Shown piece after piece: positions 2,363 to 23,979 of a stretch of 64,000 nt of DNA. Both the position numbers and the translations under genes were made by a program. The DNA comes from Candidatus Latescibacterota bacterium (GTDB taxonomy: Bacteria > Latescibacterota > UBA2968): contig OZ220741.1 in assembly GCA_965116885.1 (NCBI GenBank), positions 3,520,001 to 3,584,000 on the forward strand, in the 5' to 3' direction. How positions within the stretch are numbered: the first letter of the stretch is position 1; the number at the start of each line of letters is the position of its first letter. Under the pieces are notes generated by a model. That model made no database searches and was not told the DNA's origin. It saw only the letters and a list, made by a program, of their open reading frames with translations.

Positions 2363-2369
2363 TTCTCGA

Positions 2370-6503: not shown

Positions 6504-6565
6504 AAAGTAGCATAATGCCTTATTTTGTCAAACTATTTGACAGCCTTGAATGCCCTGTCTATCAT
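6504..6565. promoter_or_regulatory. Back-to-back divergent sigma70-type promoters
   Basis: Plus strand: TTGACA (6537-6542), 17 bp, TATCAT (6560-6565). Minus strand: TTGACA (6531-6526), 16 bp, TACTTT with an upstream TG. The two -35 boxes form the palindrome TGTCAAA-CTA-TTTGACA. Confidence 0.7.
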
Positions 6566-6649
6566 GTAAAATAAGCAGGGCATTTTTCATTTTGGAGTTG
6601 CCCCCAAAACGGGTCAAGTCCAGTCACCCTTCATCCCGACTACAGGATT

Positions 6650-7582: not shown

Positions 7583-7589
7583 TTTTCGA

Positions 7590-8642
7590 TTATTGTGGTA
7601 CAGCGCTGCTCATGAACCCTTCGTTTCTCACCAGTACCTGGAGATCCAGATTTGTCATAGGGAAATCCACCCGGGCGTTGCCCAACCGCTCCGATTCGTG
7701 AAGAGAAAGCACCATTTCCAGCGCCGCTCGTCCATCTTCTCCAGTGGATATTGTGTCCTGATCGCGGTCGAGGCTTTCTACAATCTCCTCTACTGACAAC
7801 GGGATCACACATCGGCCTACGTTCGTTGTATTCAGCTTGTGTTCCTCTGGTATTTCGGGAAATTTTTCCTCTTTATTTTTGACGAAGAGCTTGAACTGAC
7901 GTGGCCGTGTATTGACCACCGTTATTCGTCCCCTGGATCCCAACAATTCAAAGAGGTGCTGGGCGCTCGCTCCGGTAGATCCATTTACAATGCATTGTAC
8001 GCCATTTTGAAAATGAAAGTACCCGGCGCCACGGGGATCCAGCGCATCCGGATCCAATAGGTGACCGGTTGCCCACGCGACATCGCCTGCAAAGAAGCGC
8101 AACATGTCAAAATAGTGGGTTCCGTTGTTGGCAAGCCCGGCACTGTACTGGAGCGTCATCGCCTGAAGGGAGCCGATGACCTCCTGATCGATTAGCGCCT
8201 TAATTTGGCGAAATTGCCAATCCCATCGGCGCGTGTGGTTAATGCTCAGCTTTACGTTGTTTTTCCGGCAAGCATCAATCATTTCGTCTGCCTCGCGCAA
8301 CGTAGTCGCCATCGCCTTCTCACAGAATATGGCTTTTACGCCTGACTGAGCCGCGGCAACAACGATATCCCGATGCGGAATGGGATAGGTGCAAACACTC
8401 ACGATATCCAGTTTCTCAGTATCCAGCATTTCCCGCCAATCCGTGTACAGACCCGGAACATCCCATTTGCCTCCAAAACTCTGTCGGCGTTCATCGTCCC
8501 GATCTGCTGCTGCGACAATACGGGTTCGGTCACAGTGATTGTAACAACCCGCATGAGTGTTCGGCGTTCCGCGATGTGTTTCCTGCTCCAGTAAACTTGA
8601 AATCCTGCCACAGCCGATAACACCAACGTTGTAAACTTGCAT
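7590..8642 (-). CDS. Gfo/Idh/MocA family oxidoreductase, copy 2
   Basis: About 6 aa differences from copy 1. Start set at MQVYNV (8642) to match copy 1. Confidence 0.92.
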   Translation of the reverse strand: MQVYNVGVIGCGRISSLLEQETHRGTPNTHAGCYNHCDRTRIVAAADRDDERRQSFGGKWDVPGLYTDWREMLDTEKLDIVSVCTYPIPHRDIVVAAAQSGVKAIFCEKAMATTLREADEMIDACRKNNVKLSINHTRRWDWQFRQIKALIDQEVIGSLQAMTLQYSAGLANNGTHYFDMLRFFAGDVAWATGHLLDPDALDPRGAGYFHFQNGVQCIVNGSTGASAQHLFELLGSRGRITVVNTRPRQFKLFVKNKEEKFPEIPEEHKLNTTNVGRCVIPLSVEEIVESLDRDQDTISTGEDGRAALEMVLSLHESERLGNARVDFPMTNLDLQVLVRNEGFMSSAVPQ

Positions 8643-8771
8643 AGAAAAACTCCGGGGAATGTTGTGGGAAGAACTCGTTTTCAAGATCTCAGATCACAAT
8701 CCAAACAAAGATTTCTACCTTCATCATTGTACCTTTTTGAAGTTTTTGTATTTTCAAAAACTTTAGTGCGC

Positions 8772-9908
8772 TCACCCTTGGTGAGTCCCAGCCTCCGCTA
8801 CCTTCCCGCGGTCTTCCTGCCGCTCCAGCGGCAGTTCTTGCATAAATGTCCACTGACGGTCCCCCAGCTTTTGAAGCTGCGATTCGTCGAGTTCCATCCC
8901 CAGACCCGGACCTTTAGGCACGAGAAGGTAGCCATTTTCGTACTGGACCCGGTGTTTGACAACGTCGTCAATGTAGAGTTGCGCGCCAGCCGCATCGCCA
9001 GGGTAATCGAGGTTGGATACCGATGCGCCCAGATGCGCCTGCGCGGAGGTCCCAATAGAAAGTTCCTGAGTTGTGCCAATCAAGGTGGAGATTCCGGTGG
9101 CCTGTGCTATGGCGAAGATCTGGCGCGATCGTTTGATGCCCTGGTGGCAGGTCGCAATATTGAAGATGTCGACAGCCTGTCCTTCCGCGAAAGCAATGGC
9201 CTGGGTCTCGTCGTTGACATGCTCACTGACCGGGAACCGGATGCGCTCACGCACCTTTGCTTTGCCCGGGATGTCGGGTGCGGGACTTTCAACCAGGATC
9301 GGCTCGACCCACTGCAGACGCTCAACGGCGGCTACGCACGACTTCCAATCAAGTCGGCGGCTGAAGTCCAGTGATTTAACTTTGAATCGATCTCCATAAC
9401 GATCGCGACACTCATGTAAGATCTGATTGTCGATTTCGAGGTTTCCACCCACGTAAAATCGGAACAGGTCGAATCCCAGCTCGAGCATTCGACCGACTCG
9501 CTCGACGTTGGGTGCGACGTCCGCCTCTTCGAATTGTCGAAAGATGGGGTAGCAGATTTTGTAGCGATCTCGGTAAGCACCTCCATAGAGGTCGTGAATT
9601 GGAATGCCCAAGCTCTTGGCCCGAAGGTCGTGAATCGCAATGTCCACACCTGCGCCAATCTGTCCCTTATATCCGTCGACGATCGGATCGATGGCGGTTG
9701 GATCGGATGGATCGATTCCGATCAACGATTTCCGAAGTATATACTCGAGATGGTTGATGTCGGGTATGTTTCGGGTACTGAGGTCGGACATTTCGCCCGC
9801 ACCGACTACACCATCGTCTGAGATGATACGGATGATAATGTGAGGGCTAAGCGTACCGTTCTCTCGTCTTGTTCCGACTGCAAATAGATCGAGCTCTTTA
9901 ATGGTCAA
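8772..9908 (-). CDS. Enolase-superfamily acid-sugar dehydratase, galactarate dehydratase II-like
   Basis: GEMSD, CYPIFR, FRFYVG (RxY instead of KxK), SLDFS, ESPAP, SEHV and GTTQELS, as I recall for Oceanobacillus galactarate dehydratase II. TTG start after AAGGAG. Confidence 0.8.
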   Translation of the reverse strand: MTIKELDLFAVGTRRENGTLSPHIIIRIISDDGVVGAGEMSDLSTRNIPDINHLEYILRKSLIGIDPSDPTAIDPIVDGYKGQIGAGVDIAIHDLRAKSLGIPIHDLYGGAYRDRYKICYPIFRQFEEADVAPNVERVGRMLELGFDLFRFYVGGNLEIDNQILHECRDRYGDRFKVKSLDFSRRLDWKSCVAAVERLQWVEPILVESPAPDIPGKAKVRERIRFPVSEHVNDETQAIAFAEGQAVDIFNIATCHQGIKRSRQIFAIAQATGISTLIGTTQELSIGTSAQAHLGASVSNLDYPGDAAGAQLYIDDVVKHRVQYENGYLLVPKGPGLGMELDESQLQKLGDRQWTFMQELPLERQEDRGKVAEAGTHQG

Positions 9909-9973
9909 AGCAGACTCCTTTCATCGATCGTCTCAGGAACACCAATACGAATAGAGCGCCCCTTGTCGGCATC

Positions 9974-10843
9974 TTAATTTTTCACGCCAGTTTCTGTCTC
10001 ATTGTAATCGTAGGGCCGGTTTCGGAAGAGGTAGTCTATCGGTTCATCTACAAAAATTATGTTCGGGTCCAGGTCGCTTTCCGCAAAGGCGGTTTCACAA
10101 CCGGTATTGAATCGGAGAGGGGGAAGGCGACGCATCCAGTGGCATGAGTAGATCGCTGCGATCATGAACCGCGGTTGGTCGGAGGGATTTGGCATTCCCC
10201 GGTGCCAGAGCCGGGAATCGCGGATCAGAATGCTTCCCTTTTTTGTGTTCCCCCGAACTGGCGGTGCTACTTTTCGGCGTGCTTCCTGCAGGTGTTCTTC
10301 TACCTTGATATCATCTCCAACTACCTTTTGCGTTTCCAGATGGGAGCCAGGCCAGAGTTCGATACTTCCGTTGGCTTCGGTCACTTCGTCCAGGGCAATA
10401 TTGACAATGACTTTGGACGGCGGGTGCGCGACATCCAGGTTCGGCCAGAGCTGTCCCGAGTCAACATGTACCGGCTGGAGTTCGCTGCCCGGCAAGTTGG
10501 TGTTGCCGGTGTAGCGATTGTTGAAGATCCCTTCGCCGAGCAGGGCTTTCGAGACCTGGACTACATAGGGGTTCGCCATAACGTCGCGAAAGACGTAAGG
10601 GGGGAAGGGGGGCGGGTCTTGCTGGACGTTTCCCCAGACGAAGTTATGGGGCGGCGCAGGGGCGTTCATGATTTTCTCTATGTCTTCGGTCATCCGCTCA
10701 CAGAGAAGATCGAGGTGTTCGTGCGCGACCACTGCATTGAGGATGATGTAGCCCTCCGTTCGAATGGCATCGAGGGCCTGTTTCAGGTGCGCGTCGGTGA
10801 GAGATTCGGCTGCGTGTTCTTCCGGTGTGACGGTGATTTCCAC
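9974..10843 (-). CDS. Phytanoyl-CoA dioxygenase (PhyH) family protein
   Basis: HxD (VHVD), NGSIELWPGSH, WHRG and PRFM. Confidence 0.9.
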   Translation of the reverse strand: MEITVTPEEHAAESLTDAHLKQALDAIRTEGYIILNAVVAHEHLDLLCERMTEDIEKIMNAPAPPHNFVWGNVQQDPPPFPPYVFRDVMANPYVVQVSKALLGEGIFNNRYTGNTNLPGSELQPVHVDSGQLWPNLDVAHPPSKVIVNIALDEVTEANGSIELWPGSHLETQKVVGDDIKVEEHLQEARRKVAPPVRGNTKKGSILIRDSRLWHRGMPNPSDQPRFMIAAIYSCHWMRRLPPLRFNTGCETAFAESDLDPNIIFVDEPIDYLFRNRPYDYNETETGVKN

Positions 10844-10952
10844 GGCTACTTATCTCCAGATCATTAAACGATTAAGACTGTATTTAGGGGTTTTGTGTGA
10901 TGTTCATTTTTCAAGACATTTGGTTTAGGTAGAAAGTTTTTATATTTTGAAG

Positions 10953-11011
10953 AGGCGTTGCCGCTCTTTCCCGCCTGGTTGGGCGTAGAAAATGTAGAGC
11001 GCATTGTCCAC
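10953..11011 (-). pseudogene. Fragment of the carbon-nitrogen hydrolase gene 20733-21617
   Basis: Matches 20918-20975 with 2 substitutions and a 1-bp insertion. Confidence 0.9.
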
Positions 11012-11065
11012 GGTCAATCTATTAAGGAGACAAACTTTCCACCAGATTCCCAGGAAGATACGCCA

Positions 11066-12016
11066 ATGAAAACGGATTTGTCACGTATTAAGCACTCGCT
11101 CATGTATGAGGTATTTCAATCAACTACCATGCTGTTATTTATGTTGTCAGGCATTTCTACCATGCGCCAAAAACATCAATTAGCTGCAGGAGTTGCTACA
11201 TCCATTCCTCTGCCGGGGCTTCCTGAAATCTGCTTCTCCCCGTGCATTATTAACGCCCCGGATGACTACCTGTATGGTCCAGCCGGAGCCGCGGCCCAGC
11301 TTGCTTACATGGGATGGGTCGCGGAGGTGTACGCGCTCTGGGAATGTCGCTTCCGTAAAGAACTAAAGGAATCATTCGGTTCAGATGCCAGCATAATCCT
11401 GCCGGAGTTCGACACATTCGGGGATCTGCGTCGAATTAGGAATGATTTCCTACACAACAACAGAGTTGCTAGCAGAGAGCACACAGGAAAATGTAAAGTA
11501 CTTAAATGGTTTGAGGCAGGTGACAAGATAGTGTTCAGTCTAAATCAGGTATTCGATTTTCTCCATCAAGCGGGCTTCCTGTTACTAGCACATGACCACG
11601 AAAGGCGCGTGCCAGCGAGTGCATATCCTTCTTTCAACGACCACGGATATTCATATGGGCAAACCGTACATCACGACAGGGACAAACTGCTAAATTGGAA
11701 GCCGGAGCCTAAAATTATTTCAGTTCGCAACCATCAGGACAACCAGGATTCGCCTCGCTTCAAGGGCGTAACAGTTGTCTTCAACAATGGCCTGTTCGCA
11801 CCTATTCCATTTGGCCCACTCGATAGCGCAGAGCATCAGGCACGTCTTGGCAAAGCCAAAATAACAGCAGATGGCAATATACAGTTCAATGATGGGACTG
11901 TGCAACATGCTCGGTCCATCTACCGCGATGTGGTCAAAACTTGGTGCGAACCGATAAGCAAAGACGAAGGACCTAGTAGCCCAGTGACTGGGCCGTGGAT
12001 GAAAATTCGTAAATAA
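11066..12016 (+). CDS. Hypothetical protein
   Basis: Long ORF. The track start (10958) lies inside the nitrilase remnant, so ATG 11066 is preferred. Contains DLRRIRNDFLHN (R-x4-H). Confidence 0.65.
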   Translation: MKTDLSRIKHSLMYEVFQSTTMLLFMLSGISTMRQKHQLAAGVATSIPLPGLPEICFSPCIINAPDDYLYGPAGAAAQLAYMGWVAEVYALWECRFRKELKESFGSDASIILPEFDTFGDLRRIRNDFLHNNRVASREHTGKCKVLKWFEAGDKIVFSLNQVFDFLHQAGFLLLAHDHERRVPASAYPSFNDHGYSYGQTVHHDRDKLLNWKPEPKIISVRNHQDNQDSPRFKGVTVVFNNGLFAPIPFGPLDSAEHQARLGKAKITADGNIQFNDGTVQHARSIYRDVVKTWCEPISKDEGPSSPVTGPWMKIRK

Positions 12017-12046
12017 AGAAAGCACTACATGATCTCTCCCTCTATC

Positions 12047-12080
12047 CTCTCGCCGCGGAGAGCTTGTGGCGAGGGGCTTT
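12047..12080 (+). terminator. GC-rich hairpin after the hypothetical gene
   Basis: ctctcgccgcgg/ttgtggcgaggg stem with G-U pairs, followed by a short T run. Confidence 0.35.
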
Positions 12081-12327
12081 CCATATTCCTCCTCTCTAGT
12101 ATTTCCCCATACCCTAGTATAAAATACGACCTTAAATTTCATAAGTATAGTGAAAGCAATTAGTTGTTGTTCTGTTATAGGATATGCCCTGATTTTCACG
12201 GTTAATGCGCTTAAAATGCCACCTCCAGATATTTGAAGGGCAGGAATATAGTTGCCGTTAGTAACATGGATTATTATTCTGAATCCAAATTCAAGAGAAG
12301 TAGCACCAATTTCAAACAGGAGGGCAC

Positions 12328-13755
12328 GTGACCGACAGTATGCCGGAGCACCAAAACATCCTGCTTCTTCTTTCGGATCAACATCGGTGGAGCGCCTTGG
12401 GTTGCTATGGCAACGAACAGGTGCATAGCCCACACTTCGACGCACTGGCGTCCGAAGGTGCGCTATATCGAACATGTATCTCGAACCATCCAGTCTGCGC
12501 ACCCTACCGGTGTACTTTGCAGACCGGCCTTTACATGCACCAGCACGGTGCCTACAGTAACGGCCACGTCCTGGACCCTTCCTTCCAGTGCATGGCAGAC
12601 CACTTCCGCGCTGCCGACTACGCCACTGGCTATATTGGCAAGGCGCACTGGTATGGCAACGAGACGCCAGGCTTTGTCCCGGAGAGCCACCGTCTGCGGT
12701 GGGAGACCTGGCATGCGTGCAACAATCACAACTGGTTCTATGATCCGCCGCACATCGACCACCGCGGCGAGCTCACTTACCGGTATCGCGGTCGCTACGA
12801 TCCAGAGGTGCAGACCGACCTGGCAATAGAGTTCATCGGTGCCAACCGCCATCGTCCCTGGATCCTGCAGCTCAATTGGATTCCGCCGCATGCGCCGATC
12901 GAGTTTCTCGACGAAGACGCGCTCGCGCGGGCACGGCAGCTGAACCGATCCCTCGAATTCGGCCTTCCCGACGCGTTCTTCCGAGATTCCGACTCATTGA
13001 AACACCGTTTTCCGTTCCACCTGCTACAGCGGGTCGTCCCTTACCGGAACCTCGACCTTTATGACGCCGACCAGATTGAGGTTGAGCCGAATGTCGCGCA
13101 CCACCTCAGGCCGGTCATGCGCCACATGCTCAAGGAGTACTACGCCATGGTGTCGTCCCTCGACGACCAGATCGGCAGGATTGTCGCGACGCTCGATGAC
13201 CTCCATCTACGGGAAAATACGACGATTATCTATACGTCCGATCACGGCGACCTGGTGGGCAGCCATTCGAATTTGACCGAGCACTACCGCCGCAAGAGCC
13301 TGCCATACCAGAATGCGTACCGGGTGCCGTTGATTATTGCAGGTGCTGGCATCCCATCGGGAACCGAAGTCGAGACGCCCGTCGGCAGTGTTGATTTGCT
13401 CCCGACAATTCTCGATCTCGCCGGGCTTCCTCCGGCCGCAGATTTGCCTGGCCGCTCTATGAAAGTGGGAACTGGTGGCCGAACCGGGCCCGAGTCTGAC
13501 GTGGTGTTGATGGGACTGCGCAACTGGCGCGCCGTCCACGACGGTAGATACTGTTATGCCGTGTTCTTCGACGCAGACGAGAGCAAGCTATTGATCGATA
13601 CCGAACGCGATCCTTACGACATGGACAATCTGTTGGAACGGTCTGAGTCGCACCCCGTTGCTCAGCGACTCCATCAGCGGCTTCGCGAGAAACTCCGCGA
13701 AGTCGGCGATCTGGACGGTCTGGAGCGCGTCTCCACTCGGTATGAATTTCAGTGA
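12328..13755 (+). CDS. Sulfatase
   Basis: NILLLLSDQHR, CAPYR, GKAH and TSDHGD. RBS AGGAGG before GTG. Confidence 0.92.
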   Translation: MTDSMPEHQNILLLLSDQHRWSALGCYGNEQVHSPHFDALASEGALYRTCISNHPVCAPYRCTLQTGLYMHQHGAYSNGHVLDPSFQCMADHFRAADYATGYIGKAHWYGNETPGFVPESHRLRWETWHACNNHNWFYDPPHIDHRGELTYRYRGRYDPEVQTDLAIEFIGANRHRPWILQLNWIPPHAPIEFLDEDALARARQLNRSLEFGLPDAFFRDSDSLKHRFPFHLLQRVVPYRNLDLYDADQIEVEPNVAHHLRPVMRHMLKEYYAMVSSLDDQIGRIVATLDDLHLRENTTIIYTSDHGDLVGSHSNLTEHYRRKSLPYQNAYRVPLIIAGAGIPSGTEVETPVGSVDLLPTILDLAGLPPAADLPGRSMKVGTGGRTGPESDVVLMGLRNWRAVHDGRYCYAVFFDADESKLLIDTERDPYDMDNLLERSESHPVAQRLHQRLREKLREVGDLDGLERVSTRYEFQ

Positions 13756-13849
13756 TCCTTTCTTTTAGGGATTATATAGAATAGTGCCAAAGAAAAAAGC
13801 GAGGGATGATATATGGAACTCGCATCGTGCCAGTAAAAAAAGATGAGAT

Positions 13850-14884
13850 CTATTTTGTCGGGTCGTCCGATACCCGAATAATAAGCTTACCAAAATTTTC
13901 ACCTTTGAGCAGACCAATCAAAGCTGCGGGCGCGTTTTCCAAACCATCGACAATATCTTCCTTGTAGCGCAATTTGTCTTCGCGAATCCATCCGCCTAAA
14001 GTGCTAAAAGCTTCTTCCCTTTGGTCCGCAAAGTCCGAGACAATGAAACCCCGAAAGGTGAGTCGTTTGGTGAGGATCTGGCGCAGCATATAATGCATCT
14101 GGTTGGGACCGGGTGGCAATCCCGTATCATTGGCAATGGCGATGGTGCCACATACGGGTATCCGGGCAAAGGGGTTGAACAGCGGCAACACCGTCTCAAA
14201 CACCTTGCCAGCCACATTCTCAAAATAAACATCAATCCCGTCCGGACAAGCACCGGCGATTTGTTCTTCAAAATCGTCGGCTCTATGGTTCACACACGCA
14301 TCGAATCCAAACGCATCGGTAACATACTGGCATTTTTCTTTAGTCCCCGCGATGCCTACGGCCCGCGCGCCTTTGATCTTAGCGATTTGCCCAACTACCG
14401 ACCCCACTGCTCCCGAGGCAGCCGCCACGACGACTGTCTCATCGGGTTGCGGTTTGCCGATATTGAGTAGCCCCGTGTATGCGGTCATGCCGGGCATGCC
14501 CAGTACGCCTATTGAGGTAGAGATGGGCCCCCAGGCCGGATCGATTTTGCGCAGCGCCTTTCCTGGGAGAGCGAAAAGGGATTGCCACCCGCCCCTGCCC
14601 TCCACGATGTCGCCCTCAGCAAATTCCGAATCGTTTGAGGCGATCACCTTTCCCACGCAGCCGCCCTCCATCACCGTGCCAAGTTCGACCGGTTTGGCAT
14701 AGTTTTTCGCCACATTCATCCTGCCGCGCATGTAGGGATCCAGCGAAAGATAAATCGTCTGGCACAAAACTTCACCCTCACCAGGGGTAGGCACATCGGA
14801 TTCCACCAACTGGAAATCACTCGGTTTCGGTTCTCCTTCGGGACGAGCAACCAGCAAGATTTGACGGTTTTTTAGATCGGACAT
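13850..14884 (-). CDS. NADP-dependent oxidoreductase (CurA/YncB/PTGR-like MDR family)
   Basis: YLSLDPYMRGRM, GMPGMTAY, AASGAVG, DVYFENV and NFGK. Start re-assigned to MSDLKNRQ after AAAGGA. Confidence 0.93.
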   Translation of the reverse strand: MSDLKNRQILLVARPEGEPKPSDFQLVESDVPTPGEGEVLCQTIYLSLDPYMRGRMNVAKNYAKPVELGTVMEGGCVGKVIASNDSEFAEGDIVEGRGGWQSLFALPGKALRKIDPAWGPISTSIGVLGMPGMTAYTGLLNIGKPQPDETVVVAAASGAVGSVVGQIAKIKGARAVGIAGTKEKCQYVTDAFGFDACVNHRADDFEEQIAGACPDGIDVYFENVAGKVFETVLPLFNPFARIPVCGTIAIANDTGLPPGPNQMHYMLRQILTKRLTFRGFIVSDFADQREEAFSTLGGWIREDKLRYKEDIVDGLENAPAALIGLLKGENFGKLIIRVSDDPTK

Positions 14885-14903
14885 ATGTATTCCTTTATCA
14901 AGT

Positions 14904-15749
14904 TCAAATTCGTGCGAATTTTTGCAGTCGGTTGGGTTGACGGGGCACTTCGGTGACGTAAATATCACCGCGGCTATCAACGCAGATGCCGTGCGCAGGA
15001 TCGATAAACTGTCCGGGATCTGAGCCTTCCTCGCCCCATCTTGCCAGCAGAGCACCATCCAGGTCAAAAATGCTGACGCGCTGGGGTGCTTCGGCAATAT
15101 AGACAATATGATCTGCATCGATGTGAATGTTATTCGGAGATTGGATATCTGTCCACTCCTCCAGAAAGTTCCCATCAAAATCGAAAAGCTGAATGCGGTG
15201 GTTTTCCCGGTCGCTTACAAGCACGCGGTCGCGTGGGTCAATGCATAAATCGTGCGGCAGGGCAAACTGGCCGGGTCCTGTGCCTTCCTCACCCCAGGAA
15301 AGAATCCGTTCGCCTTTCGCTGAAAAGCGATGCACCCGGTGCTGGCCGTATCCATCCGAAACAAAAATTTCACCTGAGGGCGCGGCCATTGCCTTGGTTG
15401 GCCTGTTGAACGGCTCGCCCGGTGAACCTGTCTGGCCTGGCATCCCCAGGGTCTGAAGCACTTCTCCATCCGTGCTGAAGATACGCACAGTATGATCGTC
15501 AACATCCGCACAATAAATCCGATCCGCCGGATCGATCCAGATATTGTGCGGATTTGAGAGCACATCATCACCCCATGCACCGAGAAAGCGACCTTCCGAA
15601 TCGTAAACCAGAATACCCGCAGGCTCTCGCAGGGTGACATAGACGCGATCCTGCGAGTCAACTGCCACATCGGGCACGACTCCACCCATCTCTTTCCCTT
15701 CGGGACCTCGGCCCCACCCTTCGACAACGCGGTATTGATAAGTTGCCAT
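14904..15749 (-). CDS. NHL-repeat protein (peptidyl-alpha-hydroxyglycine alpha-amidating lyase-like)
   Basis: FNRPT, VSDGYG, GQFALPH, DRENHRIQ and GQFIDPAH repeats. Confidence 0.88.
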   Translation of the reverse strand: MATYQYRVVEGWGRGPEGKEMGGVVPDVAVDSQDRVYVTLREPAGILVYDSEGRFLGAWGDDVLSNPHNIWIDPADRIYCADVDDHTVRIFSTDGEVLQTLGMPGQTGSPGEPFNRPTKAMAAPSGEIFVSDGYGQHRVHRFSAKGERILSWGEEGTGPGQFALPHDLCIDPRDRVLVSDRENHRIQLFDFDGNFLEEWTDIQSPNNIHIDADHIVYIAEAPQRVSIFDLDGALLARWGEEGSDPGQFIDPAHGICVDSRGDIYVTEVPRQPNRLQKFARI

Positions 15750-15775
15750 TGTGTACTCCTTTCAGATATGCCCGA

Positions 15776-16603
15776 CTACCTGTCCAGTCTAACCCAATCG
15801 GGCCAAACCTTGGCAAAAAATGCTCGCTGGATGCCCCGTACGCTCTCCCCGCCGTCAACAACGAGATTGGAGCCTACACTGAAGTTGCCTGCTTGCGAAG
15901 CGAGAAAGATGGCCATGCCTGCGATGTTTTCCTTCTCTCCAACCCGCTTGCCCGGAATGTTTTTCTTCATCTCGTCTGTGTGATCCCGGGCCACCTTATT
16001 CAAATCGCTGGGAAAATCACCAGGGGAGATGGTATTGACTTGAATCCCTTCCCAGGCCAAACTATCACCTAAATGTCGGCCCAAATGGATCACACCTGCT
16101 TTGCTGGCTCCGTAGGCATAATTGTAAGCTGTGTTGAGTTTACCACAGCCGTCGATAGACGCGATATTGATCACATTGCGTGGTGTTTCTGGCGAAGCCC
16201 CCACGCGCAGGAATGGCAGAAACGCCTGGGTCATAAAAAAGATGCTTTTGAGATTGAGATCCATCACCGCGTCCCATGTTTCCTCCGTCACATCCTCGAT
16301 CTCCCTGCGACCATCGCTGATTCCAGCGTTGTTGACCAAAATATCGAGCGACTGTTCTCGTTCACCGTAGGCCTTTGCCAGTTCCTTGATTCCGGAGACT
16401 GAACTTACATCGGCTACGAGATACTCGCAGGAGCCGATTTGTGCAAGTTCCTCCTGCTTCTTTTTTAAAACACCTTCTCTGCGTGCGACAATGTAAACCT
16501 TCGCCCCAAAATTGACAAAGCCTTCGGCTATCATCGCTCCGATGCCGGTCGAACCACCAGTCACCAGTGCGGTTTTTCCCGCCAGTGAAAATAGATCTCT
16601 CAT
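15776..16603 (-). CDS. Short-chain dehydrogenase/reductase
   Basis: TGGSTGIG, LVNNAG and YGASK (YxxxK). Confidence 0.93.
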   Translation of the reverse strand: MRDLFSLAGKTALVTGGSTGIGAMIAEGFVNFGAKVYIVARREGVLKKKQEELAQIGSCEYLVADVSSVSGIKELAKAYGEREQSLDILVNNAGISDGRREIEDVTEETWDAVMDLNLKSIFFMTQAFLPFLRVGASPETPRNVINIASIDGCGKLNTAYNYAYGASKAGVIHLGRHLGDSLAWEGIQVNTISPGDFPSDLNKVARDHTDEMKKNIPGKRVGEKENIAGMAIFLASQAGNFSVGSNLVVDGGESVRGIQRAFFAKVWPDWVRLDR

Positions 16604-16623
16604 TTTCGTTTCTCCGTGAGTTG

Positions 16624-16650
16624 GGCAATCTGTCGATGTTCGGCTGCCTG
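16624..16650 (-). pseudogene. Second fragment of the carbon-nitrogen hydrolase gene 20733-21617
   Basis: 26/27 identical to 21000-21026 (QAAEHRQ[I/L]A). Fills most of the spacer between PhyH and SDR. Confidence 0.85.
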
Positions 16651-16651
16651 C

Positions 16652-17362
16652 TTAAACATCCCATCGCCACGTATTGCGACAGGCAAGCCGTGGATATTCA
16701 TTCGCGTTCTTGCTTCCCGCGTGTACAAAAAAGTTCTGGTAAAACAGAATGTCTCCGCGCTTCGCCACCAATTCCACGCCTTCGCCAATATCCACCTTGT
16801 GCATATCCGAATTCACGTCCCACAGATAGGGATACTTCTCTGGATTGCGCTCTGCAAGACCCCGCATCTTTTTATGTGAAACCGGCCATCCAAATGTGCA
16901 ACCCCCATGCGATTCTGTATCATTCAAATACAAAATTGAATGCACACTGATTGGAATCGGAAACGTCACATTAAACTTCTCCCGGTTGGTTCCGCCATCA
17001 AAGTGAGGTTTGTGGTGGCTCCATTCACCTTCCGTCGGAAACGTGTTCTGCGTCAGGATATCCTTCGGCGCGTGGATCTCCTCGCGTCCCACACCCGTCA
17101 ATTCGGAAAGTGCGGTCAAAATATCATCCGTATAACACGCTAAGATATCCGGTGCGCCCAATCTTCGATTTTCCGGCAATGCGCGCTGCCGTTGACTAAT
17201 CGCATGCGCTGATACGCGGTTCCAGGTCTCGGGATCGTCACGGTCCATTTCCAGAGCCGCCCACATCGCGTCTTCTCCTTTGCGAGCTACATCCTCAGGT
17301 ATCAAACCCGACGCCAGCAAATACCCTTCTTCGCGAAACTGCTTCTTCTGCTCATCTGTCAT
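16652..17362 (-). CDS. PhyH-family dioxygenase
   Basis: QFREEGYL, PHFD, GDILF, VHAG and PRLA. Confidence 0.85.
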   Translation of the reverse strand: MTDEQKKQFREEGYLLASGLIPEDVARKGEDAMWAALEMDRDDPETWNRVSAHAISQRQRALPENRRLGAPDILACYTDDILTALSELTGVGREEIHAPKDILTQNTFPTEGEWSHHKPHFDGGTNREKFNVTFPIPISVHSILYLNDTESHGGCTFGWPVSHKKMRGLAERNPEKYPYLWDVNSDMHKVDIGEGVELVAKRGDILFYQNFFVHAGSKNANEYPRLACRNTWRWDV

Positions 17363-17371
17363 TATTTTCTC

Positions 17372-18718
17372 CTAATTCTGTTGTGCAGGTCTGTTTCTAT
17401 TTCTCCGAGGTCTTCTAATCCTTGGCGCCATCTGGCTTCTCCAGGCCTTGAATTTTTTTTGTAGCCGCTGAACAATTTCCGGTTGCTGGTTTGCCAGATC
17501 ATTTTGCTCACCTATATCTGCGTCCAGATCGTACAATTCCAGCTTCTTAGACCTGCTAAATGTAAGCTTCCATTTCCCTTCTCGAATCGCCCAGGTTCCC
17601 GAATCGCCATCCCAATACAGCGCATCGTGCAATGCCCCTTCTGTTTTACCTTGCAAGACTGGCAACATATTTTTGCCATCGTAGATACGGTCTTCGGGCA
17701 ATGGAATGCCAACAGCTGCACATACAGTCGGCAAAATATCCATACAAATAACCGGTTCATCACACACACCACCTGCTTCCAAATGCCCTGGCCAGGACAC
17801 GAGAAACGGCACGCGTAGCCCCCCCTCATAGACATTCTGCTTGTAGCCGCGCAGGGGCATATTGTTTGCATTTGTGGCCCTTGCACCACCATTATCGGAA
17901 AAATAAAAGATGAGTGTATTTTCCCACACGCCATTGGTCTTGAGCGCTGCCACCACATCGCCAACAGCGATATCCATTCTTTTGAGCATGCCCATCAAAA
18001 TATCGCGTTTGGAATCTCCTGTGTTAAATTGTTTGATGTCCTCTTCGGGCGCTTGCATCGGCGCATGCACGGCATTAAAAGGAAGATAAAGAAAGAATGG
18101 GTCGTTTTTGTTTCGTTCGATGAAGCCAACAGCCTCTCGGGCCAGATTATCGGTCAAGTACCCGGTATCATTGATGATCTCTTTATTTCGATATATTGCA
18201 TTATGGGCTCTGTCCTCTTTATAATTCAAATCAAAATAGTCGTGCCCCCCATGCCCTAAAAAGCCGTAAAATTCATCAAATCCACGGTTGTTCGGATGAT
18301 ATTCAGGCGTCAAACCCAAATGCCATTTTCCAAATACCCCCGTCCTGTACCCCGCTTTTTTGAGCAGGTCTGCAAGTGTAATTTCATCAACTGGCATACC
18401 GGCGCGTGAGTCACTGGCCGTATAAAAACCAAAGCGCTGCTGGTATCGACCGGTCATCAAACCCGCCCTGGTGGGCGCACATACAAAGGCACTGGCATAT
18501 CCATTTGTCATTCGAATGCCCGAGTTGGCCAGTGCGTCGATATGCGGTGTATGGACTTCTGGGGGATGTGCCTGGTAACTCACATCTCCAAAGCCCTGGT
18601 CGTCTGACAAAATCACCACAATGTTTGGACGTTTGGCATCTTCGGCCCATATAAAAGGACTTGCTATCATTCCAGATACTCCTATTCCCAAAGTTTTTAA
18701 AGCTGCGCGTCTATCCAT
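17372..18718 (-). CDS. Sulfatase with twin-arginine signal peptide
   Basis: MDRRAALKTLG Tat-like leader, then PNIVVILSDDQG, CAPTR, GKWHLG and SDNGG. Confidence 0.93.
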   Translation of the reverse strand: MDRRAALKTLGIGVSGMIASPFIWAEDAKRPNIVVILSDDQGFGDVSYQAHPPEVHTPHIDALANSGIRMTNGYASAFVCAPTRAGLMTGRYQQRFGFYTASDSRAGMPVDEITLADLLKKAGYRTGVFGKWHLGLTPEYHPNNRGFDEFYGFLGHGGHDYFDLNYKEDRAHNAIYRNKEIINDTGYLTDNLAREAVGFIERNKNDPFFLYLPFNAVHAPMQAPEEDIKQFNTGDSKRDILMGMLKRMDIAVGDVVAALKTNGVWENTLIFYFSDNGGARATNANNMPLRGYKQNVYEGGLRVPFLVSWPGHLEAGGVCDEPVICMDILPTVCAAVGIPLPEDRIYDGKNMLPVLQGKTEGALHDALYWDGDSGTWAIREGKWKLTFSRSKKLELYDLDADIGEQNDLANQQPEIVQRLQKKFKAWRSQMAPRIRRPRRNRNRPAQQN

Positions 18719-18800
18719 ATTGTAATACTCCTTTACGGGATGTGTGCCTAAGAGGTGCTAACAAAGTTGGGCAACACGGTGCTTTTTCATAAATTCCTTC

Positions 18801-19472
18801 TTAGGCTATCAGCCATGTAATTGCGTTGTCAATAAGCTTCGCAGTCATTGGATGCATAAGAATAGCCTGATCGTGCCCGGGCACCAGCACCATCACACGT
18901 CCGCTTCCATACTCATGACACCAACCTTGCACATGCCGCCCATTGGTCACAGAGTAGCTCTCGAGAAATACAGATGTTTGCGATTCATCCAGGTCCATAA
19001 TGTACTCTTCTTCCTGAACACAATAGGGTTCAACACCATCGGTCAGTTCGGGTAATACGCCCGTCGGACGGATTTCGATATCGATCCGCTTTGGATGGTT
19101 GTGAAAACGAGACTTTGAGACGCGCTGAATACCGCCGCCTTCGGAATAAAACGCAACGGCATCGTGGTGGAGAAATAGTCGGCCGCCATTTTGTGCATAT
19201 GCCTCAATGAGCGTTTCCTCATCTTCAGAAAGCCACTTGTGTTTATGCCCTTGCTGAAGAGTAAACTGCAACTCACGGGCATTCCGTACATCGTCGAATG
19301 CATATCGGCTAATGAGCACCATATCAAAAGATGAGAGATCGTCCCAGGGCACTGCATTGTCAAATACAATTGTCGGATCATACCCTCGCACATGTAGTGG
19401 TCTCACAAGCGCAGTGACCAGATGTGCCGGGCAGTGGTAAGCGTCTCCAAGAACTGCGAGTAATTTTTTCAC
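18801..19472 (-). CDS. ThuA-like (class I GATase-like) domain protein
   Basis: LGDAYH, NGGRLFLHH, HP, EEEY and YGSGRVMVLVPGH. Confidence 0.78.
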   Translation of the reverse strand: MKKLLAVLGDAYHCPAHLVTALVRPLHVRGYDPTIVFDNAVPWDDLSSFDMVLISRYAFDDVRNARELQFTLQQGHKHKWLSEDEETLIEAYAQNGGRLFLHHDAVAFYSEGGGIQRVSKSRFHNHPKRIDIEIRPTGVLPELTDGVEPYCVQEEEYIMDLDESQTSVFLESYSVTNGRHVQGWCHEYGSGRVMVLVPGHDQAILMHPMTAKLIDNAITWLIA

Positions 19473-19519
19473 AATCTGCTCCTTTTGGCGGTCAGGACGG
19501 CAACTGCATAACTAAAGCC

Positions 19520-20680
19520 CTACTCATAGACCATCTCCCCGGTCTTGTGGTTCTCGATCCAGTCCCGGTCGAACTCCACCCCCAGTCCCGGCCCCTCTGG
19601 CACTTCGACGCAGCCGTTCTCATCGACCGAATCCAACTCGTCGAGCCAGCGTCTTTCTGCATAGACCGCCGGCTTGGTAGCGGGCACCAGGGGATGCACC
19701 AGACCCAATTCGTAGTAATTGGCGTTGCGCAGGGTCGCCATGATATGCCGGTGTGCCAGATTGCCGCCGTGCAACTCCACGTCCAGCCCGTGCGCCTCGG
19801 CCATAGCAGCGATCTTCATTACCCCGGTGATGCCGCCGTCGGTCTGGGCGTTGGCGCGTACGAAGTCGGTGGCACCGGCAGTAATGGTATCGGCCTTGGC
19901 CTCCAGCCCGCGCACATGTTCGCCCATCAGCATCGGCGTATTGATCAATTCGCGCAGCTTGGCGTGGGCAAAGCGCGAAAAGCCGCCGCCCCTGAACGGA
20001 TCCTCATACCACATATAGCGCGCCTCGTCGCAGGCGCGACCCACCTTGAGCACGTCCTCGAATGTGGGAAAACATCCGGCTGGATCGAGCAACAGGTCCA
20101 TATCGTCGCCCACCGCTTCGCGAATGGCTAATACCGCCGCTACCTCGCGGTCGATCGGTCCGTTGATCCAACCGTGGATCTTAAACGCTGGATAGCCGTA
20201 TTGCTCCTTGCAGCGCAGCGCGAATTGCGCGAAGTCGTCCGGTGTCGTCAAGCCGCCGTTTTCGTCGCCGTGGTAGGTCGAAGCGTAGGCCGGCAACTTC
20301 TTGCGCCAACCCCCGCCCAAAAGTTCGTAGATCGGCGCGTCGTAGAGTTTGCCGGCGAAATCCCACAGCGCGATATCTACCGCACCCGGCGGCGTGCCGT
20401 CCTGTCCGCGGCGCGAGCGCTTGAGGTCGTGCCAGATGATCTCGCGGTCCAGCGGGTTGCGGCCGAGCAAGTACTGCGCCGGGCGGGAATCGATGCCACC
20501 GGACGCAATGCCGCTGATGCCGACGCTGGTCTCGATGGTCAGCAATCCTCCGCCCAGAGTCAGGCGGCCGCCCTTGCGATAGACCGTGTCGAAGCCCAAT
20601 TGCTCCTCCAACTCCATATCTGCGATCTCATAGGCAAAACTCGTCGAGGTAATGCGGGTGATCTCAATATCTCGCGCCAT
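19520..20680 (-). CDS. Mandelate racemase/muconate lactonizing enzyme family protein
   Basis: DIALWDFAGK, LPAYAST, FKIH, LLD, WYEDP, GEH and ELHG. Confidence 0.9.
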   Translation of the reverse strand: MARDIEITRITSTSFAYEIADMELEEQLGFDTVYRKGGRLTLGGGLLTIETSVGISGIASGGIDSRPAQYLLGRNPLDREIIWHDLKRSRRGQDGTPPGAVDIALWDFAGKLYDAPIYELLGGGWRKKLPAYASTYHGDENGGLTTPDDFAQFALRCKEQYGYPAFKIHGWINGPIDREVAAVLAIREAVGDDMDLLLDPAGCFPTFEDVLKVGRACDEARYMWYEDPFRGGGFSRFAHAKLRELINTPMLMGEHVRGLEAKADTITAGATDFVRANAQTDGGITGVMKIAAMAEAHGLDVELHGGNLAHRHIMATLRNANYYELGLVHPLVPATKPAVYAERRWLDELDSVDENGCVEVPEGPGLGVEFDRDWIENHKTGEMVYE

Positions 20681-20732
20681 GGTGCTCTCTCTTTCGCTGT
20701 GTGTTTGGTTTTAACTTCCGCTCCACGGCTAC

Positions 20733-21617
20733 TCATCTCACGATCTGAGGTGACGCATAAAGATCGGGCCTGGCCTCGTTCGCTGTGAAGCAACCGGATG
20801 ATCGCGCTTTCTCTATTAAATCTCTCGAGACCTCGGTCACGATCATGCCTTCCACTGGCGCGTGTTCGTCGATGAACTGGCCGGTCGGATCGATCGCGAA
20901 GGCGAGTCCCGGAAACCAGGCATTGCCGCTTTTTCCCGCCTGGTTGGCGTAGAAAATGTAGAGCGCATTGTCCACTGCCCTTGCTGGCAAGATCTGGGCG
21001 GCAAGCTGTCGATGTTCGGCTGCCTGTTCGGTCTGATCGCCGTCAGGGGTGACGTTGTCAGCGCGGCCGCTTGCACCTACGGCGAGGAGAAAAAAATCCG
21101 CGCCCTGCTGTGCGGCGGTTCGGAAGATCTCCGGAAACCTCAGGTCGTAGCAGATCCCCACGCCGAAGGTCCAGCCTTGCGATGTCACGATAGGGAGTTG
21201 GCTCCCCGGTTCGAACCAGGCCCGCTCGGTTTCATTCGGGATGTGTAGTTTGGTGAAGGTCGCGAGGTAACCGCTGGGCCCTACGATGTAGGTGCTGTTG
21301 CGATAGCGTTCGCCCGCTGGCTCGATGGTACCGACGACAAGGGTCATGTCGAGCTCGCTACAGAGCGATTCGAGGAACGGAATTGATTCCTGGGCCGCTG
21401 CTTCTGCGATCCGCATGGACTCCTCGGGAGGAATGTCCGATTTGTTCATTGAGCCTGTGATGCACTCTTCGGGAAAGAGCGCAAACGCGGCACCTTGCCT
21501 GTGAGCCTCTCTCGACCACTCGGCAATCCGGTCGAGGTTGGTCGTGGGGTCGCCCATCGCGCTGTGCATGGCGACCGATGCGATACGTGTTTTTGTGTTG
21601 TTCATGGGATATGCCAT
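20733..21617 (-). CDS. Carbon-nitrogen hydrolase (nitrilase superfamily)
   Basis: E-K-C triad in FPEE, TKLH and ICYDLRFPE. The start may be 21605 (MNNTK). Confidence 0.92.
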   Translation of the reverse strand: MAYPMNNTKTRIASVAMHSAMGDPTTNLDRIAEWSREAHRQGAAFALFPEECITGSMNKSDIPPEESMRIAEAAAQESIPFLESLCSELDMTLVVGTIEPAGERYRNSTYIVGPSGYLATFTKLHIPNETERAWFEPGSQLPIVTSQGWTFGVGICYDLRFPEIFRTAAQQGADFFLLAVGASGRADNVTPDGDQTEQAAEHRQLAAQILPARAVDNALYIFYANQAGKSGNAWFPGLAFAIDPTGQFIDEHAPVEGMIVTEVSRDLIEKARSSGCFTANEARPDLYASPQIVR

Positions 21618-21654
21618 TCGACCCTTTCTCCGATGCGTGGTTATTCATGCGTCC

Positions 21655-22620
21655 TCATACGGCCGAACGGACCGAATAGACCGCTTCGAGCGAACCGACG
21701 TTCGGGCGGCGGTTCTCATCGTTCTGCCGGATGTTGCGGGCGAAGAAATCGTCGAATAGTTCCAACTCAAATTCTCTCGCAATGTCTATGGCCGAGCGCT
21801 TATCCGAATTGCTGTGGATCAAGGCGGTCCCGAGATAGCTCGGTACGTCGATCGTGACCTCATCCTGGTATTTCTTCTCGATCAGCGGAAACTTGCCGGA
21901 GTTTCCACTGCGTTTGACCAGCACGCGGTCCAGGTTGATCGTCGCGCACATCGTGCGTGAATAGTTGGTGTTCAGTTTCACGGGCTGGCCGAGGGGATTG
22001 ATCACCCCGCCTCCGTAGAACCGAAGCGCGGTCAGATAGTAGCACTGGCATTCGTACGCCCATTGCTGCTGAAGGAATCCGCCGTGATAGGCGCTGGGAA
22101 ATGTGAGGATGTCCGGTTTCAGGTCCCGGTATTCGAACCGAAGTTGTTCGAATTTCTGGTCGAAACAAACCACCCCTCCAAGGCGACCGATCGCGGTGTC
22201 GAAAACTTTGGGGCCGTCACCCGATCGCAACCCTTGTTTTCGCTCGTTATCCGTCAGGAACGTCTTGTGATAGGCACCGATCACCGAGCCATCAGGGCCG
22301 ATGTACACAATCGAATTGAACACGTCGTCGCCTTCGCGGAGCTTGATGGATCCGGCCACGTGACATGACTCGGCCCTGGCGAAATCCCGGTACATTGACA
22401 AAAACGGACCCGGCTGTTCCACGGTCTCGGCCGTTTCCAGGGTCTGGCCGTATCCTTCGACCAGTTCACAGGTCAACACCAGGTCCAGGTTGTATCCTTT
22501 CAGTGAATTGAGATCGTTTCGGGTCATGCGCAGTACTTTTGCCATGCTATCGGGTTCACCCCGCTGCAAATCGGTAAATGCACTGAACTGAATCGATCCA
22601 ACTCTTACGAATCGTGCCAT
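21655..22620 (-). CDS. Carbon-nitrogen hydrolase family protein
   Basis: Triad motifs TCE, YHKTFLT and VVCFD. Confidence 0.88.
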   Translation of the reverse strand: MARFVRVGSIQFSAFTDLQRGEPDSMAKVLRMTRNDLNSLKGYNLDLVLTCELVEGYGQTLETAETVEQPGPFLSMYRDFARAESCHVAGSIKLREGDDVFNSIVYIGPDGSVIGAYHKTFLTDNERKQGLRSGDGPKVFDTAIGRLGGVVCFDQKFEQLRFEYRDLKPDILTFPSAYHGGFLQQQWAYECQCYYLTALRFYGGGVINPLGQPVKLNTNYSRTMCATINLDRVLVKRSGNSGKFPLIEKKYQDEVTIDVPSYLGTALIHSNSDKRSAIDIAREFELELFDDFFARNIRQNDENRRPNVGSLEAVYSVRSAV

Positions 22621-22650
22621 CTCTCTCTCCTTTCACAATGCTAATGTCCA

Positions 22651-23940
22651 TTAGAGCGCGGCGTCGCCCGCCTCCGTCCGCAAGCTGTGTCGGCCCTCTA
22701 TATGCGCGTGCCAGTCCATGCCGATCTCCGGTCGTGGCCGGGTCGGTCTGGGCAGCGCATTCGCCTGCTCCGCCACGATCGCCGGCACGCCCACGTCGCT
22801 CAGCAACTGCGCCAGATACGCCATCCGCACCAGCGTCTCGCTCTGGTACAGGCTCATGCCATCGACACCCGCCGCGTACTGTTGCGCCGCCAGCGCATAG
22901 GCCGGTTGCGGCGCATAAAAACCCGTATTCTTCTCTACCCGGCTTTCAATCAGCCCTTTGGATCCCACACCGCCAATGCACAGTTTGCCGTGTCGGTGCG
23001 CCACCGCTGCGTGATAGCCGACGTGCAGGTCCAGATCCTCGCGGGTCAGAGGAAAGGGACTCAACATCAATCCGTCGATCAGATCCTCCTCGCACCAGCG
23101 CTCGCTGTCCAGCCCATAGGCCAGCATCAGCCAGCGCGCGTTGTCGGGCACCCGGGCGATGATCGGGCAGCGCCGACCCAATTTGTCCTCCTGGATGCGC
23201 ACCGCTCGCCGCAGTTCGGTCATAAATCCGGTCAGCACGTCGGCCCGGTACTGGAACCACGCCCGGTATTGTTCGAAGTCGTCCGAGTCGATTTCGCGCG
23301 GATCCATCCCCGTCTCCGCTATAAACGGCTCGACCAGCGCCGGATGGTATAGCAGCATCGGCATCTGCCGGCAGAAGTCGAGCACCAGCCCATTGACGCC
23401 AATCCTCTGGCACTCGAGCAAAATATCGATCCGCTCGCGCCGCACTTCCGCCAGCGCGTAGCACAGCCGGCTGGCGTCCTCGTTGCCCGGCTTGGTCACC
23501 TCCCTGAAGGCCGGATTGTCCAGCGCGAATTTGGACGTGACCCCTATCCAGTCTGCCCGGCCATAGTGGCGGTTCATCCCCAGGCGGCCCCATAGTTGCG
23601 CCTCACGATCGCGGCACAGCGCCAGCGCGTGCCGCAGCGGACACACCTCGTCCATCACTTTGCGAACAAAGCTCCAGGATATGCCTCCGACCTGGTCGCC
23701 ATTTTCGCACATTCGCGTGATATGGGGTAACTCGGACCAGTAGTCCACCACCGAACGCCCCAGATTCCAAACCAGATAGTCGCAGCCCGCTTGCAGGTGC
23801 AGGTCGATGCACTCGTCCAGTGCTTTGGGGCCCGGGCACGGCTTGTCGTAGTTGGCGTAGTAGCACATCCACTCCGAGATGCCAAACACCGGTTTTTCGT
23901 TGCCGCTTGCCGCGCGCAATTCGAGTTGCTCTTGCGCCAT
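22651..23940 (-). CDS. Hypothetical protein, probable GHL10/DUF187-like TIM-barrel glycoside hydrolase-like
   Basis: 429 aa with RBS AGGAGG. Segments GRLGMNRH, LCYALAEVR, GLVLDFCR and W..EDLIDG resemble GHL10-type barrels. Confidence 0.55.
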   Translation of the reverse strand: MAQEQLELRAASGNEKPVFGISEWMCYYANYDKPCPGPKALDECIDLHLQAGCDYLVWNLGRSVVDYWSELPHITRMCENGDQVGGISWSFVRKVMDEVCPLRHALALCRDREAQLWGRLGMNRHYGRADWIGVTSKFALDNPAFREVTKPGNEDASRLCYALAEVRRERIDILLECQRIGVNGLVLDFCRQMPMLLYHPALVEPFIAETGMDPREIDSDDFEQYRAWFQYRADVLTGFMTELRRAVRIQEDKLGRRCPIIARVPDNARWLMLAYGLDSERWCEEDLIDGLMLSPFPLTREDLDLHVGYHAAVAHRHGKLCIGGVGSKGLIESRVEKNTGFYAPQPAYALAAQQYAAGVDGMSLYQSETLVRMAYLAQLLSDVGVPAIVAEQANALPRPTRPRPEIGMDWHAHIEGRHSLRTEAGDAAL

Positions 23941-23979
23941 CTAAGGTGACCTCCTGATCGGGTGTATTTATTGAAAGCA

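Follow-up and report, generated by a model that had tools for sequence, protein, structure and literature searches.

Remains of a nitrilase-superfamily gene in the spacers of a hypervariable gene cluster of Candidatus Latescibacterota bacterium

Introduction

The window considered here is a stretch of 64,000 nucleotides (nt) from the single-contig genome of Candidatus Latescibacterota bacterium (G000:C1:3520001-3584000; genome size 5,557,749 bp), and the public runs that contain it carry sponge metagenome labels. Positions 150-24,900 of the window hold a densely packed gene cluster, mainly on the minus strand according to a Pfam scan of the open reading frames (ORFs), and two spacers of this cluster contain short pieces of Nit1, a gene of the nitrilase superfamily that stands intact elsewhere in the same cluster. 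The question raised by this locus is how neighbouring parts of one gene came to lie on either side of five other genes. The original prediction described three colinear fragments of an exploded nitrilase and explained them by the duplication of a nitrilase-PhyH gene pair, after which each copy would have kept one gene while the dead partner received new genes. The explanation favoured here, to which a probability of about 0.55 is assigned, is that the relics are the non-functional remains of one progenitor Nit1 copy upstream of PhyH1, split and eroded. The features on which the argument depends are listed below in window coordinates, with families taken from Pfam where so marked; G, L and X numbers denote genomes, loci and public runs, respectively.

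9974-10843, minus: PhyH1, intact phytanoyl-CoA dioxygenase family gene (Pfam PhyH, E 1.4e-18)
10839-10862, minus: match A, the PhyH1 leader and first 5 nt, with only 18 nt common with the Nit1 end
10881-10952, no strand: AT-rich patch separating A from B, copy of an intergenic (promoter-like) stretch that is conserved
10953-11011 (to ~11013), minus: relic B, ~60 nt of Nit1, in the intergenic DNA from which PhyH1 and the orphan gene diverge
11066-12016, plus: orphan gene, no family
12328-13755, plus: sulfatase (Pfam)
13850-~14900, minus: ADH (Pfam)
14904-15749, minus: NHL (Pfam)
15776-16603, minus: SDR (Pfam)
16624-16650, minus: relic C, 27 nt of Nit1, in the PhyH2/SDR spacer
16652-17362, minus: PhyH2, second PhyH-family gene (Pfam), whose stop codon abuts relic C
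17372-18718, minus: sulfatase (Pfam)
18801-19472, minus: ThuA (Pfam)
19520-20680, minus: MLE2 (Pfam)
20681-20721, minus: upstream flank of MLE2, outside the Nit1 unit, kept by the Nit2 spacer in the Nit1-less G019, G006 and G012
20722-21633, minus: 912-bp Nit1 unit, from just upstream of the ribosome-binding site (RBS) to GTGGA, exactly absent in G019 and G006
20722-20739, minus: A', 18 nt at the Nit1 3' end
20733-21617, minus: Nit1, intact CN-hydrolase (nitrilase superfamily) of 294 amino acids (aa) (Pfam CN_hydrolase)
~20917-20977, minus: B', the Nit1 site matching relic B, codons ~214-234
21000-21026, minus: C', the Nit1 site matching relic C, codons ~197-206
21655-22620, minus: Nit2, second CN-hydrolase (Pfam)
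22651-23940, minus: gene without assigned family

Identity and uniqueness of the relics

The three predicted matches between Nit1 and the cluster DNA at 10839-16650 were all recovered, co-oriented and colinear with Nit1, and on the minus strand both places show C first, then B, then A. Relic B (10953-11011 against 20918-20975) is identical at 56 of 59 positions with a 1-nt insertion (E 4e-18 genome-wide), and relic C (16624-16650 against 21000-21026) at 26 of 27 (E 1e-6 genome-wide). Match A agrees at 21 of 24 positions, as predicted; BLAST retains 17/18 of it (10839-10856 against 20722-20739) with an E of 0.19, which is not significant by itself, and the additional GATC in the 24-nt match probably arose by chance, for it is missing from the allele of G020 and G011, which aligns at this place. 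The sites of C and B are separated by 22-24 nt within Nit1 and the relics by 5,612 nt with five genes, which bears out the distances originally proposed (~24 bp against ~5.6 kb). Both relics are non-coding, B having no start and a frameshift from its 1-nt insertion, and C being out of frame with PhyH2.

Each of B and C occurs at two sites in the 5.56-Mb genome, the relic and Nit1 only, so that a dispersed repeat (repetitive extragenic palindrome, miniature inverted-repeat transposable element or end of an insertion sequence), a concern attached to the original prediction, is rejected. No further Nit1 stubs were detected by blastn-short on the genome or by tblastn (word size 2) on the window, and in 6000-24000 the PhyH and Nit1 matches are the only direct repeats of at least 16 nt and at least 84% identity. 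In the same interval no inverted-repeat pair recurs between the cluster spacers, which are 3-129 nt long, and attC-like integron sites were not found; no integrase-like domain is present among the 26 ORFs scanned in 154-24915, the whole genome not having been searched for one. An inverted 19-nt match (13838-13856 / 16588-16606) ranks no higher than 22 other pairs of this kind. A recent paralogous origin of the genes on either side was likewise rejected, MLE1 (8772-9908) and MLE2 having 24% identity and PhyH1 and PhyH2 being mutually undetectable by BLAST.

A fortuitous similarity or an artefact of assembly, for instance a chimeric join in what is a metagenome-assembled genome (MAG), would be compatible with the lack of significance of A alone and with the public-run contigs, which break inside B, no listed contig running across A, the AT-rich patch and the left edge of B. 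The junction at C or that at the right side of B is covered without mismatches in contigs of two studies: a contig of X19, possibly the source sample, bridges C (15445-16683, 0 mismatches), and contigs of X19 and of X20, a run from another study, start inside B at 10984, where 28 nt of it are still to come, and cover the orphan gene and the sulfatase (0 mismatches), the 28-nt overlap with B being below the 31-letter rule. These contigs, the E-values of B and C, and the presence of C at the same place in the assemblies of four other species make such an artefact extremely improbable.

Relics B and C in related genomes

The relatives are represented by one genome per species, many of them draft MAGs, and the genus loci examined (L013-L019, L036-L044) correspond to 14 genus genomes with the cluster. 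Relic C, which takes up the greater part of the 48 nt that separate the stop of PhyH2 (16652) from the start of SDR (16603), is found at the same place in G015 (27/27 to the C of this genome), G017, G008 and G003, the last of these being without Nit1. It carries the genus-type GCAGCC, other genera having GCCGCC, and a private A (CAGATTGCC) that is common to all five bearers, and it varies by 1-2 nt among species, like neutral DNA. The genus-type state together with the private substitution in all five bearers indicates that C is identical by descent and old. Its last 11 nt (3') are still fused to the SDR leader in G009, G014, G004 and G019, where other DNA precedes, and the short strings CAGG and ACAG.TTGCC lie at its edges.

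The fragments do not look equal in age: of B no second copy was found in 40 relatives or in the fetched genus loci, and it is seen only in this genome. At all 3 sites that vary among the genus alleles, B holds the ancestral-like state, common with out-of-genus alleles, so that the relic, insertion aside, looks like an early allele and not like a copy of the present Nit1 of this genome. Its edges show at most 2 nt of microhomology. Two unrelated segments lie between B and the PhyH1 leader, one of ~37 nt common to the PhyH1 upstream regions of G020, G011, G004 and G014, and the 72-nt AT-rich patch, which is 81-87% identical to a conserved intergenic stretch upstream of another gene in G002, G003, G011, G014 and G020, and 78% identical to a copy in its own genome (1608939-1609018). 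The A-B region gives no Rfam match at E up to 1 and contains 1 promoter-like site against 1.0 expected.

As to the new genes that the dead partners were supposed to have received, SDR, NHL and ADH near C are not recent, and only the orphan gene and the sulfatase that lie between B and ADH (11066-13755) are specific to this genome. The orphan gene encodes 316 aa that match neither a Pfam nor an NCBIfam family; among 167 other phylum genomes it has no full-length homolog, a single weak partial match being present in G138 (E 1.9e-7, residues 84-148, 48% identity over these 65 residues). Its G+C is lower (0.45-0.49), and inspection by eye alone shows RNDFLH, an Rx4H sequence like those found in HEPN domains. 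Copies of the sulfatase with 90% nucleotide identity are located elsewhere in G014 and G007. In run X20, a variant joint (10844->13836) joins the 3' flank of ADH and the start of PhyH1 through 36 different letters. The 2,991 nt that these letters replace comprise the upstream part of A, B, the orphan gene and the sulfatase; this contig points to a co-occurring relative or strain without the insertion. Exact-pattern scans of metagenome contigs gave 0 hits for B and 1 hit for C, which is unrelated to this genome, and no intermediate state.

The junction between Nit1 and PhyH1 and the 912-bp unit

The 18 nt of A' (GAGATGAGTAGCCGTGGA) combine the last 7 nt of Nit1, its stop among them, with 6 nt of spacer and with GTGGA, the 5 nt that begin the PhyH1 ORF. 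They are 18/18 identical to the PhyH1 leader and first 5 nt in G017, G003, G004, G006, G014 and G019, five of these six genomes being without Nit1, and the remaining genus genomes have close variants of the string. Among out-of-genus Nit1 orthologs (87-95% aa), 11/13 end in ...GTG.G.GGAACC...TAG (SGTP-stop) and two (L060 and L061) in ...GGATGA, so that the genus Nit1 3' end differs from most of them, and it is continuous with the PhyH1 start. Since the same 18-nt string is the end of Nit1 and the leader of PhyH1, reaching 5 nt into the PhyH1 ORF, Nit1 and PhyH1 must once have been contiguous. To this extent the proposed nitrilase-PhyH pair stands; of a duplication of the whole pair there is no sign.

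The intact Nit1 had also been described as followed by the PhyH leader and first bases. After its stop comes GTAGCCGTGGA, which contains only 5 nt of PhyH1, and the next 41 nt are the own flank of MLE2 (20681-20721), which directly follows the Nit2 spacer in the Nit1-less G019, G006 and G012. In G019 and G006, ATT takes the place of 20722-21633, and the same Nit1-less joint recurs in run X1. In G002, G013, G014 and G004 the whole island formed by the 22651-23940 gene, Nit2 and Nit1 is missing and MLE2 follows the 23980-24915 homolog. The Nit2 genes of G019 (L141 5384-5574) and G006 (L142 4002-4192) are cut to aa 1-39 plus 297-321 (the first 39 and last 25 codons), the homolog of the 22651-23940 gene beside them being intact.

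A duplicated nitrilase-PhyH pair with reciprocal retention and dead partners overwritten by incoming genes would account for the junction string at both places and for the nitrilase relics colinear upstream of PhyH1, and PhyH1 does duplicate in this genome, as the deleted copy at 6051-6454 shows. This explanation is nevertheless improbable, since the intact Nit1 is followed by only 5 nt of PhyH1, a deletion of PhyH would need to stop precisely at the edge of the 912-bp unit, and MLE2, ThuA, the 17372 sulfatase and PhyH2 keep their synteny throughout the genus whether Nit1 is there or not. The 41-nt flank and MLE2, in place in genomes that have no Nit1, indicate that MLE2 and the following genes were not inserted into a dead PhyH, and the reciprocal loss originally proposed is disfavoured by the same observation.

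Nit1 as a mobile gene and turnover in the cluster

Nit1 matches Pfam CN_hydrolase PF00795 over its full length (1-255/256, E 1.7e-35) and has, by inspection of the translation, the E, K and C motifs (FPEE, TKLH, ICYD). It remains below every NCBIfam equivalog cut-off (best hits aguB, 83 bits against 410, and nitrilase NF040852, 77 bits against 500), so the predicted name nitrilase, correct as to the fold, holds only in the superfamily sense. Orthologs with 96-97% aa identity are present in 6/20 other genus genomes, and one with 89% in another genus. The 13 close out-of-genus orthologs lie in many different upstream contexts, and MAGs labelled as Gemmatimonadota and Bryobacterales (L054, L056, L059, L061, L099) contain orthologs of 87-96% aa, explained either by transfer across phyla among the symbionts of sponges or by wrong binning of contigs; the DNA downstream of the ortholog in L099 is 89% identical to this genome ~23 kb upstream of the window. 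From these many contexts, including MAGs labelled as other phyla, Nit1 is evidently a promiscuous single gene that has moved often. A 79-nt piece of Nit1 (equivalent to 21103-21181, 95%) is present in an unrelated intergenic site of G015 (L137 8127-8205) and G007 (L138 147-225), syntenic to 163.5-164.1 kb of this genome (163636-164085), where a truncated ORF resembles by eye the N-terminus of an IS605-type TnpB.

The rest of the cluster also changes gene by gene. PhyH1 is present in 14/20 other genus genomes, and SDR and NHL in nearly all of the 14 with the cluster; the Nit island, ThuA, SDR and ADH are present or absent one by one across the 14 species, and the order of the 17372 sulfatase and PhyH2 is swapped in six genomes. 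The interval between PhyH1 and GFO is alternatively occupied by MLE1, GH43 or the 3492 sulfatase, and the cargo upstream of PhyH1 consists of ABC-type permease-, RND efflux- and P-loop-like ORFs (by eye) in relatives and of the orphan gene and sulfatase here. Gene stubs remain at the junctions, such as 31 aa of GH43 in G017, 26 aa of GFO plus 23 aa of NHL in G013, 42 aa of the 12328 sulfatase in G004 and G014, and, in five genomes, what looks by eye like the start of a sulfatase (MKRPNVIII) ahead of SDR, and SDR is lost RBS-to-RBS in G008. In the species tree, built from one 4.5-kb rpoB region only, sister species (G015 and G020; G002 and G017) carry different locus variants, which means that the locus alleles either recombine among species or change very often.

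Origin of the relics

We infer that C and B derive from one progenitor Nit1 that would have stood directly upstream of PhyH1 in a hypervariable cluster whose sulfatase, dehydrogenase and dioxygenase genes are co-oriented. The progenitor would have been split between codons ~206 and ~214 by other genes, with a loss of ~22 nt, SDR-NHL-ADH being now in between; its 5' 590 bp would have been lost up to the PhyH2 stop codon, and its 3' end eroded by further small replacements. C would have survived in several species and the last nucleotides of the progenitor in the PhyH1 leader throughout the genus, and B in this genome alone, the insertion of the orphan gene and sulfatase next to it being presumably a later event. 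The intact Nit1 would be a relocated or retained 912-bp unit in the Nit2-MLE2 spacer that still bears the old Nit1/PhyH1 junction. The joins are best described as illegitimate and at the level of microhomology, presumably with no dedicated recombinase, and no attachment-site-like repeat recurs among the cluster spacers. Non-homologous end joining was rejected as the joining route, a PF02735 search having found no Ku domain in this genome.

Several points weigh against one progenitor. Nit1 next to PhyH1 was found in 0/14 genus loci, 0/62 Nit1-related loci and 0/15 out-of-genus PhyH1 loci, so that the relatives with an intact adjacency, or the intermediates, that the original prediction proposed to look for did not appear, and none of the 14 genus loci has an intact or longer Nit1 copy at the position of the relics. 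One shared origin requires that B was lost everywhere else, since B is in one genome and C in five; the two unrelated patches between B and A mean that B is not simply contiguous with the junction. As every genus genome seen has SDR-NHL in the interval from PhyH2 to PhyH1, the split would have to predate the sampled radiation, or the alleles to have spread by recombination, and the locus variants are scattered against the rpoB-region tree. The true breakpoint could lie anywhere in the 18 nt, and the ...GGATGA of L060 and L061 resembles the genus ending. The lack of Nit1 in G019 and G006 may be a deletion instead of an empty site, because their Nit2 is also internally deleted, and the 79-nt piece of G015 and G007 indicates that short Nit1 pieces can occur away from any known gene copy.

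In a rather unlikely alternative, each of B, C, the AT-rich patch and the 79-nt piece arose independently as a short ectopic patch and no second gene copy was ever there, single-stranded fragments of an often-transferred gene having been joined at microhomologies during replication (SPDIR, for short-patch double illegitimate recombination) or by template switching. All pieces are 27-79 nt long, within the range of 3 to ~100 bp given for SPDIR-type microindels (bioRxiv 10.1101/2023.11.22.568220); short shared strings lie at the edges of C, B adjoins another foreign patch of 72 nt, B and C are distributed differently among species, and a Nit1 piece is found at an unrelated locus in two relatives. 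Near-identical Nit1 alleles of other genera also co-occur in the same samples, visible as loose contig ends at 20739 in X19 and X20. Isolated patches are, however, rare here: a self-comparison of the genome yields 793 short matches (30-100 nt, at least 93% identity), of which 20 are strictly two-copy and 16, including B, unchained; 11 of these 16 are local, all 11 direct. The reported spontaneous frequency of the process is very low as well, ~1e-12 to 1e-13 in Acinetobacter baylyi (bioRxiv 10.1101/2023.11.22.568220). In addition, two random pieces of an 885-nt gene would fall within 24 nt of each other in the right order with a probability of 0.028, which becomes 0.007-0.014 when orientation and colinearity are added, so neighbouring, colinear and co-oriented segments are improbable if independent, and with the shared Nit1/PhyH1 junction three pieces stand in gene order.

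A wider version of the patch explanation, held to be unlikely, is that the relics are natural footprints of replication-linked copy-and-patch remodelling (SPDIR or template switching) of co-oriented catabolic clusters, gene by gene, in sponge-symbiont Latescibacterota, without integrases or repeats. Such footprints may comprise the 27-79-nt Nit1 pieces, the 72-nt promoter-like patch and the 912-bp gene unit, all placed precisely at spacers. If true, this would give evidence from nature for a class of mutation so far known mostly through laboratory work, and the patch reading would bear on the natural frequency of short ectopic insertions.

Comparison with known systems

Under the split-progenitor explanation, the relics resemble pseudogene fragments left by deletional decay, being short, non-coding, high-identity spacer pieces of a gene intact elsewhere with neutral-like evolution; they differ from the usual ones in that three pieces of one gene extend over 5.8 kb with working genes between, one piece was recruited as the leader of a neighbouring gene, and no relative has an intact copy at the site. 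As in genes split by a genomic island or prophage, the pieces flank inserted genes and ~22 nt were lost at the split, but no integrase was seen in the cluster ORFs scanned and there is no attachment-site repeat, the inserted block consists of conserved metabolic genes, and most of the split gene is gone. The likeness to SPDIR (27-79-nt patches, heterologous junctions, with very short shared strings at the edges of C, and donors that may be intra- or extragenomic; bioRxiv 10.1101/2023.11.22.568220) is a resemblance and not membership, the process not having been demonstrated in this phylum, and the pieces here, being colinear and from one gene, agree with one former copy, adjacent donors arguing against independence. 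Reciprocal gene loss also leaves two places that each keep a different member of a once adjacent pair, whereas here only one gene has evidence of duplication at the place in question, the other being represented by 5 nt.

The finding is ordinary genome decay in an unusually readable form, a known kind of relic and no new functional element. It shows at nucleotide resolution how the catabolic cluster of an uncultured symbiont lineage is rebuilt gene by gene, with a horizontally mobile hydrolase gene repeatedly inserted, moved and erased, and that stubs of lost genes can make up spacers and even ribosome-binding leaders. For annotation, the lesson is that short high-identity spacer matches of this kind are not regulatory repeats, and such relics are relevant for reconstructing gene flow among sponge symbionts.

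Other features of the cluster

The part of the cluster on the other side of PhyH1 contains the following features.

154-1401, plus: ASST-like gene (Pfam)
~1430-2362, plus: TIM-barrel gene (Pfam)
2370-3422, minus: GFO/IDH/MocA gene (Pfam)
3492-5039, minus: sulfatase (Pfam)
5128-6027, minus: GH43-like gene (Pfam)
6051-6454, minus: dead, internally deleted PhyH copy
6650-7582, plus: second TIM gene (Pfam)
7590-8684, minus: second GFO gene (Pfam)
8772-9908, minus: MLE1 (Pfam)

The TIM-barrel and GFO/IDH/MocA genes are covered by a direct duplication of 2,083 bp (1403-3484 and 6623-8705, 96.4%). In a tree with 9 other species the two copies are mutual nearest relatives (SH-aLRT 92), and an import from different species is not supported, each copy grouping with the other. 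The contents between GFO and PhyH are unlike in the two copies, with sulfatase plus GH43 in one and MLE1 in the other. In the dead PhyH1 copy the 3' 162 nt are joined to the 5' 251 nt, the middle ~470 nt being deleted; it is 96-97% identical to 9966-10127 and 10600-10850, and the 138 nt upstream of it (6455-6592) are 97% identical to the PhyH1 upstream region of G007, unlike that of the intact copy here. The G+C of cluster neighbours contrasts, from ~0.46-0.49 in ThuA and the 17372 sulfatase to 0.59-0.65 in MLE2 and the 22651-23940 gene, and the uneven G+C within 5000-24000 is consistent with a mosaic origin of the cluster.

Outside the cluster, two otherwise diverged sulfatase-like genes have a common 64-nt leader plus first ~20 codons (50111-50174 / 54254-54317, 95%), one of the 16 isolated two-copy short matches of the genome, and another such match lies just beyond the window (genome positions 3618717 and 3626352).

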